64,000 nucleotides of DNA, from the sequence record KM606994; one strand, given 5' to 3'. Of the stretch, positions 16,643 to 53,984 are shown in pieces; position 1 is the stretch's first letter; every line of letters begins with the position of its first letter. Both the position numbers and the translations under genes were made by a program. The stretch is from Escherichia phage RB3. The notes beneath the pieces were generated by a model, which ran no database searches, had not been told where the DNA came from, and saw nothing but the letters and a program-made list of their open reading frames with translations.

Positions 16643-17641
16643 TTAGCCATTAACCCCCTGGGCAATATTATTTTTCATATATTCCATAATTTGTTCAGGG
16701 GTTGCACCTTCCTTTCTAATCATATCATTGACATCTTTTGATTTCCAGGGAGATTTATCCCAAAACATAACCCTTTCTCCTGCATCAACTAATTTAGTCA
16801 TTCGTTTAATAGTGTCAGGGTGACGAGGTTCATTATCTAAGACCCACACTCGTCTATCTTTAAATGGAACAATTTCTAGGTCTAATTGACCACCCGTAAT
16901 AGCTATACCATTTTCAATAAAAAGTGAATCTATAGGTCCTTCTAGAACATATACATCACCATCTTTAACTCGTTCGACTCCATAGATTTTTGTTGCCTCA
17001 GGATAAGCTTTAATGGTGATATATTTTTGGGGAGCATCTTTCTTTAATGCACGTCCTTGAAAAGACTCAGCTTTTCCATTAGCATTATAAATTGGAATAA
17101 CAAGACGAGGCTCAGGTATTTCCTTTTTATATGTTCCCGGTGCTATACTATTAACCAATTTAGGCCATTCGGTTGTAAACCAAAGATATTTCCATTTATC
17201 CTTTGGAATACAACGAGCTTTTACATATTTTATAATTGGATGGTCTTCCGCCAGTTTATCTAATCTAACACATGACGGAAGAGATTTAATTATTTTCTTC
17301 TCAGGTTGTTTAGGAAGTTCTTTAGGTTTTTCTATTGGACGACTTTTACCTTTTTCTTTTCTTATTTCAAAGATATACTCACGATATAAATCAGGTTCAA
17401 ACTCCTTTAAATATATTCCGATTGGTGCATGATAGTTACAGTTATAACAATGAATATTTCCTTCATTATTATCACCATAATACCATCCACGAGCTTTATT
17501 CTGGTCGGTTTTTGAATCTCCACAAACAGGACATCTAAACCGTAATTTAAAAGTTGAACTATTATTTACTTGTGTGAATTTAGGTAAATGAGCTAATGCA
17601 CGATACGCAAACTCATTATCAATCCAAGGTATTGATGACAT
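16643..17641 (-). CDS. 61: DNA primase gp61 (332 aa)
   Basis: Zinc ribbon CPVCGD...CYNCNYH plus TOPRIM-like region; adjacent to gene 41. Confidence 0.9.
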   Translation of the reverse strand: MSSIPWIDNEFAYRALAHLPKFTQVNNSSTFKLRFRCPVCGDSKTDQNKARGWYYGDNNEGNIHCYNCNYHAPIGIYLKEFEPDLYREYIFEIRKEKGKSRPIEKPKELPKQPEKKIIKSLPSCVRLDKLAEDHPIIKYVKARCIPKDKWKYLWFTTEWPKLVNSIAPGTYKKEIPEPRLVIPIYNANGKAESFQGRALKKDAPQKYITIKAYPEATKIYGVERVKDGDVYVLEGPIDSLFIENGIAITGGQLDLEIVPFKDRRVWVLDNEPRHPDTIKRMTKLVDAGERVMFWDKSPWKSKDVNDMIRKEGATPEQIMEYMKNNIAQGVNG

Positions 17642-22018: not shown

Positions 22019-22861
22019 TTAATCAACTGCTATTGGATGAATAGCATTAAACTTATGAAATGCTTCTGATTTTTCTTTACGTGAAACACACATGCGAAGA
22101 ACCTTTAACGGCTCGTCTTCTTCACCCAACGATTTTCGTTTTTCAATATTCGATGTTTTCCAACGAGCTTGCTCTGGAAACTCTCTATTGATTTGCTCAA
22201 GCGCTCTATTATGTTTAGAATTACTACGAATTGAACTGCACCCGCCAGGAGCTTGTGCTTTTCCAGATACAACCAGATATTTGAACAAGGCCAAATGCGG
22301 ATAACCTTGATTAATTAAATTGAGAAATGCATACATATCTTCACATAAATCAATTTTTCCATACCCAATTTGTTCTGTTGTAAGTTTTCCGAGGTCATAC
22401 CATGTATTCGTGAATCCATATGAATTTTCACGATAATTACCCCAAGATGAAGTAATTTTAAAAATTGGTAGACGAGCATGACCATGATAATACCCGCAAT
22501 CCATGGCATCCTCAACATATTGAATCAATTCATAGAACTGTTCACGAGTTAATTGATTAATTTTATCTACACAACGACGATCATCTCTTTTTCGCATTGA
22601 ACTCATACGAATAGTAGTATCATCGTCAATCATCCAGATTCGTTGACCTGCATACATATCAGTAATTGCTTTACGAGTTCCAGCAATTCCGTTTACATCA
22701 TCAGGAATAGTTATAATTTTAGCTCTAGACCCATAGGCATCATAATAAGCTTTTTCTTCGTGTTCACGTACTACAATATGGGGTTCATAATCAGTCGGAA
22801 ACATATCAAGGGCAGAAACTGCCCCGACACGCTGATAACTTGGAATTACGAATTGAATCAT
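22019..22861 (-). CDS. GT-A-type glycosyltransferase at the beta-gt locus (280 aa from first ATG)
   Basis: DxD motif IWMIDDDTTI; sits between uvsX and 42 where T4 has beta-gt but is shorter and of a different fold. Confidence 0.5.
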   Translation of the reverse strand: MIQFVIPSYQRVGAVSALDMFPTDYEPHIVVREHEEKAYYDAYGSRAKIITIPDDVNGIAGTRKAITDMYAGQRIWMIDDDTTIRMSSMRKRDDRRCVDKINQLTREQFYELIQYVEDAMDCGYYHGHARLPIFKITSSWGNYRENSYGFTNTWYDLGKLTTEQIGYGKIDLCEDMYAFLNLINQGYPHLALFKYLVVSGKAQAPGGCSSIRSNSKHNRALEQINREFPEQARWKTSNIEKRKSLGEEDEPLKVLRMCVSRKEKSEAFHKFNAIHPIAVD

Positions 22862-39248: not shown

Positions 39249-39719
39249 TTAATCATGTTTCCACACCCCATCGGTATTTGACCAAAGTCGCTGATTATCT
39301 GATCCTCGCCACAGCTTTTTAGTCGGAAGATTTTTCTCATACTTCCCATCAATAATAACATCAACATATTTAAGCATTTCTAGTTGTTTAATATCTTCAA
39401 ACTTATATCCTGTCCACAACCAAATGCTTTTATTGGGATAAAGATTTTTTACTGTTTGAACAATGCAATGAATAACATCTCGATTGTCAGGATAGAGAGG
39501 GTCTCCTCCGGTTATAGTCAATCCTTCTATATAATCATTATTCAAACATTCAATTAATTGTTCTAGTGTTTCACCAGTGAATGGAATACCATTTCTAGCA
39601 TTCCATGTTGATTTATTATAACACCCTTCGCATTTATGCAAACAACCTGTAACGAAAAGAACGACCCTGCATCCAGGGCCATTCACGAAGCAGCACGGGT
39701 ATATTCTGTCATAATTCAT
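39249..39719 (-). CDS. nrdG: anaerobic ribonucleotide reductase activase NrdG (radical SAM, 156 aa from first ATG)
   Basis: CxxxCxxC cluster (CLHKCEGC); track start is TTG, first ATG gives the T4 NrdG length. Confidence 0.85.
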   Translation of the reverse strand: MNYDRIYPCCFVNGPGCRVVLFVTGCLHKCEGCYNKSTWNARNGIPFTGETLEQLIECLNNDYIEGLTITGGDPLYPDNRDVIHCIVQTVKNLYPNKSIWLWTGYKFEDIKQLEMLKYVDVIIDGKYEKNLPTKKLWRGSDNQRLWSNTDGVWKHD

Positions 39720-40546
39720 AATAATATCCAATTTTTCCAAGCTTCATCAGTAGAATTACAGCGTTTTAGTATAAGATGTCTAGAAACTTTTATGGCATTT
39801 GAGCACTTTTTAATTGAATCATATTTAATACCGTCAACTGAAACGGTTTTGCTAGTTGGAGAAATTTTTCCATACATTGGATTTTTTGAACCAACTTGAA
39901 GTCCTTTTAAAGCTTTTGAAAGCTTTTGTCTAGATTCCAATGACATGGGAGAATTCTTTTTACCTTCAATAATTCGCTTGCGATGAAGTTCGCGTTCTTC
40001 TTCACTCAAAGAATTGTAATATTTTTTAACACCGTTTGATATAGATAATTTATCTTTCTCAGACCGCTCTCCAGCTAATTTACTTCTAACATCTTTTCGC
40101 TTCATAGCTATGCTTACGGCTTTATTTAAATTTGCTTGATGCTCTGGCGTACGTTTATATTTCTTTAAAGCACGTGAAATAGCTATTTTAGTTTCTTCTG
40201 TTCTCTTTTTACCTTTATTTGCTAAACTATTTTTGCGGCGATGTTCAAGTGTCTGTTCATAGGCAGTTCCACCTTTTCCACCAGGTTTAATATTATATGT
40301 ATTTTCTTTTAGACAATACTCTTCGGTTACGAGTTCAGCTTCTTTATCATACATTTGTTTTTCATTATCAAAAACATGTAAAATTTCTTTATTAAAATTT
40401 TTTCTACCATATTTTAATAAAGCGGCACGAATCAATGTTCCTGACCCCATATAACCGTCATTTATGTTATCGGTGCTATGCGCACCGATATATTCCTTTG
40501 AATTAATTATATTTGTTATTTTATAAATTATATAATACCTATGCAT
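39716..40546 (-). CDS. free-standing GIY-YIG homing endonuclease (276 aa)
   Basis: N-terminal GIY-YIG motif (YYIIYKITN...EYIGAHST), basic DNA-binding C-terminal region; lies between nrdG and nrdD. Confidence 0.8.
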   Translation of the reverse strand: MHRYYIIYKITNIINSKEYIGAHSTDNINDGYMGSGTLIRAALLKYGRKNFNKEILHVFDNEKQMYDKEAELVTEEYCLKENTYNIKPGGKGGTAYEQTLEHRRKNSLANKGKKRTEETKIAISRALKKYKRTPEHQANLNKAVSIAMKRKDVRSKLAGERSEKDKLSISNGVKKYYNSLSEEERELHRKRIIEGKKNSPMSLESRQKLSKALKGLQVGSKNPMYGKISPTSKTVSVDGIKYDSIKKCSNAIKVSRHLILKRCNSTDEAWKNWILL

Positions 40547-49373: not shown

Positions 49374-49428
49374 AATAATCTCAATTAAAAGGGCTTAGAA
49401 CCATTATACCATCCTTGGTATAAAGCGG

Positions 49429-50016: not shown

Positions 50017-50331
50017 CTAAAAGAAACTTCTTTCACAATTTTTTCCACTGAACCATGCGCTCACTGCTTTCTTAGTCTCAGGAGCAGTGTTATCCATAAA
50101 CCATTCAAAGGCAGCCTTTTTATGATTCTGGAGGGCTTCTCGGGCTTTAATCTGCTCACGGTCTATTAACACTAACATATGAGCCTTTCTTGTCACCAGG
50201 GGCTTCTTATGATTTTTTGAATATTCCCAATCATTTGTCCATCGCATCGTTGTTGCGAACTGGAATACAGCTTCTTTAATCTTAGTTTCGTAAATTTCAC
50301 GAGCCTTTGAGTATAACATCATTACCTCCAT
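50017..50331 (-). CDS. hypothetical protein (104 aa)
   Basis: ORF track. Confidence 0.4.
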   Translation of the reverse strand: MEVMMLYSKAREIYETKIKEAVFQFATTMRWTNDWEYSKNHKKPLVTRKAHMLVLIDREQIKAREALQNHKKAAFEWFMDNTAPETKKAVSAWFSGKNCERSFF

Positions 50332-50401: not shown

Positions 50402-51128
50402 TTAGGATTCTTCTAAATGTCTTTTCTGAAAAGTTGATACCATACTACGATACGGTTCATTTGGATACCCGTGTTTTATAGCTTCCTTTGTAAATTTTCT
50501 CCATCCATATTTAGTTTTTTTCCAAAGCTCGAATAATTCATCTTCATATTGCCATATAGTTAAATGAGAACGCTTTGCAGCTTTAATTCCATTAATATGC
50601 TTTTCTTTTACTACAGGATTGCTTAGTTTCTTTTTAATAATATTACTAACTTTTCTAACAAAAACTGGGTCCTTATATCGTTGCGAAGTTTTTATTGAAG
50701 TGTTTAATTTAGCTTCCGGCGTGGATGTAACCTCTTTCATCTTTTTCTTCATATGCTGTATATGATTAGGATTTTTCCATAAATTTATAGAATGCTTTTT
50801 GCATTTTATCCTAGTTTCATCTGCAACCTTTCCTCCTTCACCCCCCCCCCCCGTATGACAGGTTAACACAGTTTTTTCCATATTTCAATTTACCTGCCAT
50901 GATATATAATATTTCAGCTTGTACCATTTTATCATAATTATCAAAAACTTCTAAAACCGTTTTTGATAATATGTGGTCATTTGACACTTTTACACGTTCT
51001 ATATAATTTCCACTACCAACATACGAATCATTGATGTTATTAGTTATATGTCGACCATAATAGTATTTCTTAATACCTGTCTTTAAATTTAATATTTCAG
51101 TTTTATAGATAGTAAAATATTTTTTCAT
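50402..51128 (-). pseudogene. GIY-YIG homing endonuclease gene split in two frames at a homopolymer tract
   Basis: ORF 50838-51128 carries the GIY-YIG motif and ends ...SYGGGG; ORF 50402-50881 starts ...TGGGGEGG in another frame; one base fewer in the tract would fuse them into about 240 aa. Confidence 0.6.
50841..50852. repeat. C12 homopolymer (G12 on coding strand)
   Basis: Twelve consecutive C at the frame junction of the split endonuclease gene. Confidence 0.9.
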
Positions 51129-52093
51129 TTTAATAATACCGTTTCAGCAATTTCTTCCCAATGGTTTTTGTCGGTCATAATAAAGTCAGCAAGATAAAGT
51201 GCAGTACGCAGTGAAACATTGCGTAAACGATTAACATTGACTTTCATCCATGATAATGCTTTATAAGTTTCTTCATCAGAAAGACCGCGCTTTTGCATCA
51301 TGTCAGTTGAAAGAATAACATCTTCAACCCTGACCATAATTTCTTCATTAGTGTGAACACCCAAATCCAAATAAACTGAGCGGGACACTAATGCTTGTAA
51401 GTGTGGGGCAAGTTTAGTACCACGGTCTAATTCGCGGTCAATGTCAACGTTTGTGATAAAAACAATCGTTCCTTTAAATTCAAACTCACGCTCAATGCCT
51501 TTTTCTTCTAAGTAAGAAGATGCAGTGCTCCAGCAGACTTTACGGGTCTCTCCAGTGTCCAGAGCAGCTTTTAGAAGATTAAGAATGTCCATATCAGAGA
51601 AAACATCCACATCATCAATCAAAAGGACAGAATTCTCTTCACGATTATTCCAAAGTTGTTCATAAAGACCGATACCGGAGATTTTACCGTTAATGCTTTT
51701 ATATTCAATGTATCCAATATCATTTGCTTTATTTAAAGCTTTATCTAAAGAATACGTTTTACCAATGCCTGCTGCTCCTGAGATAATTAATGAACGAATG
51801 TTTCCGTTAATAATACCATTCGTCATCATTCCCATAACATTAAATCTTTTATTAATGCGGGTTTTCATATCTTCATATGATTCTTTAACTTCTTCAACTT
51901 TTACGCCATCATATGAAATGTCTGATTTGTAAACCCAAACACCGCGACGCTTACCGTCAATTTCAACAAAAACTTTACCATCTCCTTGTGCATCTACCGG
52001 AGCATTATCTGGGAACCATTCGCCTAAGAGCTCAAAAGTTCCAGAGATTTCTTTACCAAAGTAGATACCCTTATTGATAGTTACAGTTTTCAT
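51125..52093 (-). CDS. AAA+/P-loop ATPase (322 aa from first ATG)
   Basis: Walker A GAAGIGKT and Walker B LLIDDVD; track start is TTG, first ATG has GGAG RBS. Confidence 0.6.
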   Translation of the reverse strand: MKTVTINKGIYFGKEISGTFELLGEWFPDNAPVDAQGDGKVFVEIDGKRRGVWVYKSDISYDGVKVEEVKESYEDMKTRINKRFNVMGMMTNGIINGNIRSLIISGAAGIGKTYSLDKALNKANDIGYIEYKSINGKISGIGLYEQLWNNREENSVLLIDDVDVFSDMDILNLLKAALDTGETRKVCWSTASSYLEEKGIEREFEFKGTIVFITNVDIDRELDRGTKLAPHLQALVSRSVYLDLGVHTNEEIMVRVEDVILSTDMMQKRGLSDEETYKALSWMKVNVNRLRNVSLRTALYLADFIMTDKNHWEEIAETVLLK

Positions 52094-52115
52094 TTTATTC
52101 TCCAAATCTGTATCA

Positions 52116-52160
52116 GTAGTTGATAGTTGTATAGTACCATAAAGCTTTATGCTTGTAAAC
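52116..52160 (-). promoter_or_regulatory. early promoter plus shared leader cassette
   Basis: gtagttgatagttgtatagtaccat then gtaaac at 52155-52160 and an A/T-rich upstream tract. Confidence 0.5.
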
Positions 52161-52190
52161 CATTTTGTGAAAAATTTTTGAAATAAAAAA

Positions 52191-52208
52191 GGGAGCCCGA
52201 AGGCTCCC
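52191..52208 (-). terminator. intrinsic terminator downstream of the nucleotidyltransferase-fold gene
   Basis: gggagcc-cgaa-ggctccc with A-run on plus strand (U-run on minus transcript). Confidence 0.6.
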
Positions 52209-52210
52209 TA

Positions 52211-53221
52211 TCATTTATAATAACTTCGATGGTTTTCGAGATACACCTTCTCAAGGAAGTCATCCCAGAAACCCATGTCCACTTTTTGCTGCATACCGTT
52301 CTTAGAAGCTTCAGTAGATGCTGCTTCTACTTGATCGACCACATCTTCCAAAAACTCTTGAACTGTTTTAAATGGATGCTTACCCAACTTCACGTCGAGA
52401 ATAAATGGAGCATCTTGGAGTGGATAAACCAAGTCACCAGTTTTGTAAATTTCCAATAGTTGGAGTCCACCACGACAAGCATGACTCAGAGCTTTCCAGT
52501 CAATGCCTTCATTGGCTTCGGCCTTACGAGCGCGTTCACCATATTCAGCATCTAATTTGTTCAGTGACTGCTTAAGCTCAATAAGAGAAAGAGTTGTCTG
52601 ATATTTACGACCCAACACAGTGTAGAACGTTTGTGGGCCTGTTTTCTCATGATTATGGAACACCCATTCACAGAATTCGTTTTCTGGAAGACGATGCTTA
52701 ATATCTTCAACTTTAGTGCGACGCTGCTTAATGGAACCGTCTTCTTGGTAATCAACCCATTGCTCAGGGATTTGATTAACTACTTTCAATACATCGCGTA
52801 ATGCAGCCAAACGAGAACCCTTGACACCGTATTTAGAAGCTTGCTTGCGAACATATCCTAAATAGGATTTCATGTTAGTCGTATAAAAACGAGAACGGTT
52901 GTCTTGAATAAACTTCCACACATCAGGCAAATCAGATTTAACTACTAGTTCAGGTGGAGTATGAAGCATATCTAATGCTACAGTTTCACCATCTGCTGCT
53001 AATTTAAAGAAATACTTAAGACTATACAATTCGTGGTCAATATCATCTTTAGTGTTTTTAGATGATGTATTGTTAGTGTTTTTACTCATATGCTCTTTAA
53101 CATTTCCGATAAGAATATCGCGAGCAGGAGGAACAAAGATTTCTTTAAAATCTACATCAGATTCTGGAGTAGAAGTTCCATAAAGATGACTACCAAAATA
53201 AGACTTAACTACAGTTTTCAT
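52211..53221 (-). CDS. nucleotidyltransferase-fold protein (Pol-beta superfamily minimal NTase), about 336 aa
   Basis: hG[GS]-x10-DxD motif (YFGSHLYGTSTPESDVD) near N-terminus, helical C-terminal domain; start chosen at third in-frame ATG, uncertain. Confidence 0.5.
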   Translation of the reverse strand: MKTVVKSYFGSHLYGTSTPESDVDFKEIFVPPARDILIGNVKEHMSKNTNNTSSKNTKDDIDHELYSLKYFFKLAADGETVALDMLHTPPELVVKSDLPDVWKFIQDNRSRFYTTNMKSYLGYVRKQASKYGVKGSRLAALRDVLKVVNQIPEQWVDYQEDGSIKQRRTKVEDIKHRLPENEFCEWVFHNHEKTGPQTFYTVLGRKYQTTLSLIELKQSLNKLDAEYGERARKAEANEGIDWKALSHACRGGLQLLEIYKTGDLVYPLQDAPFILDVKLGKHPFKTVQEFLEDVVDQVEAASTEASKNGMQQKVDMGFWDDFLEKVYLENHRSYYK

Positions 53222-53984
53222 TATTAGACCTTTCATAATCTTCATTAAATTGTACAATCAATCGATGATAATTAGATTTTGGATATCCTAATTTACTTAT
53301 ATAAGTTCCGAATGACCCACGTTTAGGTCTATTTAATTTAATCCATAACTTATAAAGTAAGTCATAGTCTTGCCAATGTTTACCAGTTCTTTGTCTAATT
53401 TTAGATGAATTTGATTGTTTCTTTTTAGTTTCAAAATTATTCAAAGATTTTTTGACTGCAGCAGAGTGTTTTTCTTTAACTCCCGGTCGTTTAAAAGCAG
53501 CTTTCACCCCTTTAGATATTTTTTCTTTAACTTCCGGTTTGTTTTGTGCTTCTAACTGGGATTCTGAAATTTTAGCCCTTATTTCAGGAAGACTTAATGT
53601 TATCGAACGTTTTTCTCTGTATTCATTAGACTTCCACATTTCTTTCATTGTATTAGAATGTATTTTTGAAAATTTTTCTCTAACTAACTGATATCCTCTT
53701 GAAGTTAATTTGAGATTTCTTCCTAAAGAATCTTCTCCAAAATTATAAAATGACCACCATGCATAAATTAATCCAGGCGAATTATAATGAATTTTAGCTA
53801 AAAGCCAATGGGCTATAAAATGCTCTCTAGCTGTTAATAAAACTAGATTATCAGAATCATCATTACCACCAATACAAGATGGAATAATATGATGCTTTTC
53901 CGTATAAAAATTTAATTTAGATTTATCTAATTTTCTGAGTTTTCCTTTCTTAATTAAATTATTATATACTTTAGTATAATTCAT
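53205..53984 (-). CDS. HNH homing endonuclease (259 aa, mobD-like position)
   Basis: HNH motif EKHHIIPSCIGGNDDSDNLVLLTAREHFIAH; basic C-terminus. Confidence 0.75.
   Translation of the reverse strand: MNYTKVYNNLIKKGKLRKLDKSKLNFYTEKHHIIPSCIGGNDDSDNLVLLTAREHFIAHWLLAKIHYNSPGLIYAWWSFYNFGEDSLGRNLKLTSRGYQLVREKFSKIHSNTMKEMWKSNEYREKRSITLSLPEIRAKISESQLEAQNKPEVKEKISKGVKAAFKRPGVKEKHSAAVKKSLNNFETKKKQSNSSKIRQRTGKHWQDYDLLYKLWIKLNRPKRGSFGTYISKLGYPKSNYHRLIVQFNEDYERSNNENCS

Follow-up and report, generated by a model that had tools for sequence, protein, structure and literature searches.

A gene in Escherichia phage RB3 (sequence record KM606994), which from its sequence almost certainly encodes a free-standing homing endonuclease of the Seg type, is split into two open reading frames (ORFs) by a run of 12 G residues. 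The same tract is present in phage RB10, whereas all other carriers of the gene have five G residues at this place. The window analyzed here is a 64,000-nucleotide stretch of RB3 DNA, and positions are given in its numbering. The seven additional residues probably represent a real, inactivating, and very young frameshift that leaves a stub with the nuclease domain only, as judged from comparison of the available genome sequences. The reading frame in RB3 and RB10 is not intact, and the split gene is therefore described here as a very young pseudogene or OFF allele.

The tract reads as 12 C residues at positions 50841 to 50852 by script count and thus as G12 on the coding strand, which is the minus strand. 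The coding sequence around it is AAC CTG TCA TAC GGG GGG GGG GGG TGA AGG AGG, or TAC-G12 followed by TGAAGGAGG. The upstream ORF (50838–51128, minus strand) encodes 96 amino acids that comprise the complete GIY-YIG catalytic domain and terminate with NLSYGGGG, and its TGA stop codon occupies positions 50838 to 50840. The downstream ORF (50402–50881, minus strand) encodes 159 amino acids beginning with MEKTVLTCHTGGGGEGGKV and lies in the +1 frame relative to the 96-amino-acid ORF; from position 50840 on, it corresponds to residues 95 to 239 of the intact protein. An earlier note made from the DNA letters had described two ORFs in different frames joined at 12 C, and both the script and the ORF listing confirm this layout. 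Only about 1.7e-4 G or C runs of 12 or more are expected in a window with 34% G+C, and therefore the tract is no chance feature. No other G or C run longer than five occurs within the 64 kb.

The start codon of the 159-amino-acid ORF, an ATG at 50881, is not preceded by a convincing Shine-Dalgarno sequence or ribosome-binding site. We also considered re-initiation at the AAGGAGG sequence located just past the TGA, and rejected it because neither the TTG nor the ATG codon nearby is in the frame of the C-terminal part.

At the same place in phages RB5 and RB32 there is a single 720-nucleotide coding sequence for a 239-amino-acid protein (...NLSYGGEGGKV...), for which the annotations are "putative site-specific intron-like DNA endonuclease" and "similar to seg". 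By DNA alignment, seven extra G residues within the G5 run are the sole difference between the gene of RB3 and RB10 and that of RB5 and RB32. The earlier note had proposed that a single GIY-YIG homing endonuclease gene is broken at the homopolymer and had named a lack of similarity to one contiguous endonuclease in relatives as one observation that would refute this. Both halves indeed belong to one protein there, and the proposal gains further support from the family matches described below. The note had also calculated that 11 G residues would restore one protein of about 240 amino acids (...SYGGGGEGGKV...). Although this arithmetic is right, with an exact length of 241 amino acids, G11 is not the intact state, because relatives carry G5 (...SYGGEGGKV..., 239 amino acids), and the lesion is therefore a gain of seven G residues rather than one.

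Family assignment was made with the reconstructed intact protein. PHROG 314 ("homing endonuclease") matches residues 1 to 238 at profile positions 175 to 423 (E 5.5e-31), and the separate RB3 halves match adjoining positions of this profile (175–268 for the N-terminal and 264–423 for the C-terminal half). A word-indexed protein search returned only two clusters, and an exhaustive HMMER search was needed to recover 1438 homologues, many of which extend across the junction. In an alignment of 36 homologues, residues G25, D34, Y36, G38, G40, E72, N89, and G93 are invariant, and Y8 and Y23 (each at least 90%), H27, S39, and G94 are nearly so. The family alignment displays the Seg-type pattern Y.Y.T...YyGKHST.nl.DgY.GSG...E...N...GG.GG, and the GIY-YIG motif residues Y8, Y23, E72, and N89 are all retained inside the upstream ORF of RB3. 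T4 SegE matches the intact protein by BLASTP across the junction (residues 11–117, 34% identity, E 1e-9), and comparison of T4 SegE with the family profile by hhalign gave 99.85% probability (E 1.4e-30).

Among the same 36 homologues, Pfam matches were obtained to PF19835 (SegE_GIY-YIG) in 10, to PF01541 (GIY-YIG) in six, and to NUMOD3 in 13. The NUMOD3 DNA-binding motifs lie in the helical part that the C-terminal ORF represents, and we predict that the downstream ORF corresponds to a NUMOD3-like or HTH-like DNA-binding part. Neither the intact nor the split proteins gave a GIY-YIG match in Pfam or NCBIfam at E ≤ 0.1; the sole match, CHDCT2, was judged to be spurious. Searches of PDB sequences with the single sequence and with a profile of the endonuclease returned nothing relevant. 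The GIY-YIG motif that the earlier note had read in the upstream ORF is upheld by the family alignment and by the SegE profile comparison, but Pfam itself fails to recognize the domain in this particular protein.

An AF2 model of the intact protein, built on the family alignment, has a pLDDT of 94.8. Residues 1 to 90 form a beta-beta-alpha-beta-alpha domain with the alpha/beta fold of GIY-YIG nucleases, the remainder is all helical, and pLDDT dips to 67 in a hinge at residues 91 to 100. A Foldseek search with the whole model found nothing. Gly93-Gly94, the invariant pair encoded by the G tract, is positioned at the boundary between the nuclease domain and the predicted DNA-binding part.

The gene resides between nrdC.10 upstream (51125–52105, minus strand) and nrdC.9 downstream (50017–50331, minus strand), and nrdC.11, nrdC.10, the endonuclease gene, nrdC.9, and nrdC.8 are all located on the minus strand. 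Its start codon shares bases with the stop codon of nrdC.10 (ATGA), and the two genes are probably co-transcribed and translationally coupled. In T4 the endonuclease gene is absent and nrdC.10 and nrdC.9 are adjacent. Alignment against this gene-less allele delimits a homing endonuclease cassette at approximately 50406 to 51145 (minus strand), which replaces about 36 nucleotides comprising the 3' end of nrdC.10 and the spacer and thereby changes the C terminus of nrdC.10. Among 501 phage records with these flanks, 65 contain the gene. Carriers include T6, RB14, RB32, RB33, RB51, RB68, and AR1, and the gene is intact in at least 60 other T-even-type phages, including T6, RB32, RB14, RB51, and RB5, RB6, RB7, and RB9. 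Such sporadic presence is what one expects of a free-standing homing endonuclease gene.

The architecture corresponds to that of known Seg enzymes. The RB3 gene shares with T4 SegE and the other members of SegA to SegG a homologous GIY-YIG domain and the succession of nuclease, Gly-rich hinge, and helical, putatively DNA-binding part, and like the genes for SegA to SegG it is free-standing between conserved genes and polymorphic for presence or absence among close relatives. It differs from T4 SegE in that its C-terminal half cannot be aligned and its reading frame is shifted. The two genes also differ in location, since T4 segE lies between inh and uvsW rather than at the nrdC.10/nrdC.9 junction. 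The "segE" labels given to the RB3-type gene in some records are thus annotation transfers and do not denote identity with T4 segE. I-TevI differs in being intron-encoded (td) and in having a zinc-finger linker, and it is 19% identical to the intact RB3 protein. Our literature search for the nrdC.10-linked endonuclease (RB32ORF093c) found no characterization, and the intact allele of RB5, RB32, and T6 is an uncharacterized member of the Seg family.

The G12 allele is common to RB3 and RB10 and was found nowhere else searched. By megablast with approximately 1 kb, RB10 (KM606999) matches at 100%, and a 7-nucleotide gap is the only difference in RB5, RB6, RB7, and RB9. A 121-nucleotide query over the tract matched 65 records, of which only RB10 reaches at least 99% identity and the other 64 fall between 90 and 95%. 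Among the matches listed besides RB10, 58 of 59 span 114 nucleotides, which equals G5, and the remaining one (phage G157lw, 113 nucleotides) has lost one nucleotide from an A6 run at another place in the gene. Intermediate lengths (G6 to G11) are absent from the 64 other records, and five and 12 are thus the only states seen across records. Pattern scans with a variable gap, which permit any tract length, gave one match in IMG/VR viral contigs and one in a metagenome collection, both G5, and zero matches in genome contigs. Exact look-up located the 96-amino-acid product as an annotated protein in RB3 (AIT72832.1) and RB10 (AIT74191.1), and the 159-amino-acid ORF is annotated in RB3 (AIT72831.1). 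Neither product was found in assemblies of public sequencing reads (Logan).

Phages RB3, RB5, RB6, RB7, RB9, and RB10 were reported in one genome announcement and share 99.99% similarity (PMC4293622). The four sister stocks RB5, RB6, RB7, and RB9 have G5, with differences at two to three sites in 64 kb; three sites separate the window from RB5 and three separate it from RB9, the tract included each time. This near-identity means that the 7-nucleotide gain, if real, is very recent. RB3 alone carries an extra C at 16658 (C5 at 16654–16658 versus C4 in RB10, RB5, and RB9), and RB10 has G at position 51385 in nrdC.10 where RB3, RB5, and RB9 have A. Because RB3 and RB10 each possess private changes, G12 is a derived state that they share and that was obtained from two libraries.

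The extra C in RB3 shortens the primase gp61 from 342 to 332 amino acids (ORF 16643–17641) and alters its C terminus, and among about 577 cluster members this form occurs only in RB3 (AIT72769.1). Either the frameshift is genuine and private to RB3, affecting a gene with a replication function, or the homopolymer was miscalled. Two further differences were seen among the stocks. At position 49392, in the intergenic region between nrdC.7 and nrdC.8, RB5 has A and RB3, RB10, RB9, and RB32 have G. RB9 has an extra T in the beta-glucosyl-HMC-alpha-glucosyltransferase (b-gt) gene (window position 22187, RB9 position 22186), a change that genome length points to in RB7 as well; the b-gt coding sequence is annotated with 720 nucleotides in RB9 instead of 843 and is intact in RB3, RB10, and RB5. 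The RB9 change is a further frameshift confined to particular stocks, here in a gene that is not essential.

The earlier note had offered three explanations for the broken frame: a homopolymer sequencing error, a recent inactivating slip in a selfish gene, and slippage-dependent expression. We favor the second as the probable one, and the first is weakened by the two libraries and by the G5 sister stocks to the point that it now appears unlikely. A sequencing or assembly artifact would mean that the true tract is G5 and that seven G residues were added while the library was prepared, the reads were assembled, or the sequence was finished in Geneious. One laboratory, one run type, and one assembly and finishing pipeline produced both G12 records; the work consisted of MiSeq 2x250 reads, Velvet with k of 51 to 63, and Geneious gap filling by read mapping (PMC4293622). 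That mapping to a scaffold was iterative. Under this reading the same error would have reached the records of both RB3 and RB10, for example via a shared scaffold. A gain of seven residues is also implausible as a single mutational step: from G5 it is impossible by one slippage or one duplication event, and tandem duplication in a single step was rejected as its origin for this reason. Several successive expansions would thus have been fixed while nearly nothing else changed, and no intermediate lengths are present in the 64 other genomes. The absence of the truncated product from read-based assemblies points in the same direction, and the second private run change of RB3, the C4 to C5 change in the primase gene, could hint at homopolymer miscalls.

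Against an artifact, the identical 7-nucleotide gain was recovered from two separate libraries that have their own private single-nucleotide differences and indels, and identical processing gave G5 for the four sister libraries. Coverage was about 2,800x for each of RB3 and RB10 and 1,474 to 6,985x for the four G5 stocks (PMC4293622). Since k-mers of 51 to 63 exceed the length of the tract, a minority error path should not win at such coverage. Nor does the pipeline appear to generate such runs in general, in that no G or C run exceeds six residues in the whole RB68 genome, which belongs to the same project, and the first 64 kb of RB5 and RB9 show no other homopolymer difference except the additional T at 22187 in RB9. 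On balance we judge an artifact to be the poorer account of these records, with a real but minor share of the probability.

Note that the RB68 genome (168,401 nucleotides) is 7 nucleotides longer than that of RB51 (168,394), the same gap as that between RB10 and RB5. However, RB68 has G5 and lacks G or C runs longer than six, and therefore this 7-nucleotide difference is not poly-G.

Leaky or phase-variable expression, by which G12 would still yield a useful full-length enzyme of the 241-amino-acid form, seems quite improbable. The frame would be restored by slippage to G11 during replication or transcription, or by a +1 shift of the ribosome at GGG-UGA. In that event, RB3 and RB10 lysates would be mixtures of OFF (G12) and ON (G11 or G14) genomes, and G6-GGG-GGG-UGA may in addition act as an RF2-like +1 shifty stop; the odds of this are correspondingly low. 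The shift that is needed is indeed +1, and the 0-frame sequence GGG GGG GGG GGG UGA A partly resembles the prfB (RF2) site, with a G-rich Shine-Dalgarno-like stretch, 3 nucleotides, and then a re-pairable P-site codon before UGA. In prfB, the site is AGGGGG-UAU-CUU-UGA-C, in which the Shine-Dalgarno-like AGGGGG is separated by a 3-nucleotide spacer from the shifty stop CUU UGA (PMC13245932). The spacer codon GGG and the fourth base A of the RB3 site are unfavorable by comparison, and the likeness is accidental and not conserved. Transcriptional slippage, for its part, is best documented for A/T runs.

Slippage has some precedent in this phage group, as a 2025 preprint reports that homopolymers of at least six residues in T2, T4, and T6 behave as hypermutable sites that mutate reversibly and at a high rate (PMC12633550). 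The A-run contingency loci of T2, T4, and T6 (PMC12633550) and the polyG tracts in receptor-binding genes of Fletchervirus likewise consist of a coding mononucleotide run whose length sets the frame, and G12 is such a long homopolymer inside a coding sequence. However, other phages with the gene do not share the G12 tract, which exists only in RB3 and RB10, and at least 60 relatives have an in-frame G5. Programmed recoding calls for a conserved shift site, whereas the 64 other records and two contigs all have the in-frame G5. This lack of conservation indicates that G12 is no evolved recoding signal, and the evolved slippage-dependent expression suggested by the earlier note is unsupported.

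Finally, the tract might be real but miscounted, with a modal G11 or G14 that keeps the frame and produces an intact endonuclease with two to three extra hinge glycines. Short reads and PCR-based libraries make it difficult to count homopolymers of at least 10 residues, and extra Gly residues might be tolerated in the low-confidence hinge (residues 91–100), but the count was 12 in each of two independent consensus sequences at about 2,800x and the family strongly conserves G93-G94 and the nearby spacing, making such a miscount very unlikely.

If the inactivating frameshift is real, the following course of events can be proposed. The intact protein, with its GIY-YIG nuclease at about residues 1 to 90, flexible Gly-rich hinge at 91 to 100, and helical DNA-binding region, would, by analogy with SegA to SegG and I-TevI, bind and cleave the nrdC.10/nrdC.9 allele without the gene in a co-infecting relative, and double-strand-break repair would then copy the endonuclease gene into the cut genome. 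The G5 run for Gly93-Gly94 would have grown by seven nucleotides to G12 in RB3 and RB10, most likely via repeated replication slippage in a laboratory or natural sub-lineage. Translation would end at the TGA that stands straight after the tract and yield the 96-amino-acid nuclease domain devoid of its DNA-binding part. As with I-TevI and the Seg enzymes, a nuclease domain that lacks the DNA-binding domain should not home, and by this analogy the G12 allele is most likely null. In a phage that lacks mismatch repair, a tract of this length would itself be unstable, and a minority of in-frame G11 or G14 revertants is to be expected.

The split gene can be regarded as an ordinary, though unusually large, homopolymer frameshift in a member of the Seg family and does not constitute a new kind of system. 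Degenerate homing endonuclease genes, such as the defunct I-TevIII of T4, are likewise frameshifted once selection for homing lapses. Compared with other cases of invasion, fixation, and decay, the RB3 lesion is a 7-nucleotide homopolymer expansion and not a 1-nucleotide slip or deletion, and it is extremely recent, given that the sister phages are otherwise almost identical. Independent 1-nucleotide indels were observed in the same endonuclease gene of three other phages, two of them in A6 runs. FL12 has a deletion in the A6 run at codon 2 together with an insertion at nucleotide 416, G157lw has a deletion in the A6 run at nucleotide 252, and AR1 has a deletion at nucleotide 458. Taken at face value, these indels indicate that frameshift decay is recurrent in this gene, but they represent either such decay or homopolymer sequencing errors.

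For annotation, RB3_095/096 and RB10_095/096 each represent a single Seg-type homing endonuclease gene in two pieces, and beyond such bookkeeping the split gene matters little. If the tract is real, however, it presents a homing endonuclease gene caught at the very start of decay and an unusually long G run in a glucosyl-hmC phage without mismatch repair, and it would be a convenient natural substrate for slippage rates and for the idea of a "phage contingency locus". Should leaky or phase-variable expression prove true instead, the tract would be an extreme case of the "contingency loci" proposed for T-even homopolymers. The intact allele of RB5, RB32, and T6 encodes an enzyme whose candidate target, near the nrdC.10/nrdC.9 junction, would lend itself to mapping.

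Between 49 and 53 kb, scans for Rfam families, promoters, and terminators revealed nothing bearing on the split gene. A strong terminator-like hairpin at 52190 to 52209, AGGGAGCC-TTCG-GGCTCCCT followed by a T run, lies between nrdC.11 and nrdC.10 and looks like a real terminator, and a sigma-70-like promoter match follows it at 52159 to 52131. Overlapping the hairpin, at 52175 to 52338 on the minus strand, Rfam gave a weak match to the L20 leader that stays below threshold (26.9 bits versus a gathering score of 58.7, E 0.027) and is probably due to chance.

Other homing endonuclease genes are found in the window. An HNH homing endonuclease gene, mobD, is located at about 53205 to 53984 (minus strand), two genes upstream of the split gene. 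RB32 has a different ORF at this position ("replaces mobD"), and this exchange suggests that the nrdC-tk region is a hotspot of homing endonuclease gain and loss. A "segD homing endonuclease" annotated in sister records corresponds to positions 39716 to 40546 (minus strand). The annotated start at 40450 gives a product of 244 amino acids that lacks the GIY-YIG motifs. The ORF nevertheless continues to position 40546, and from the ATG there, which overlaps the stop codon of nrdD, it encodes an intact Seg-type protein of 276 amino acids (MHRYYIIYKITN...EYIGAHSTDNINDGYMGSG), and the start codon is therefore mis-annotated in the sister records.
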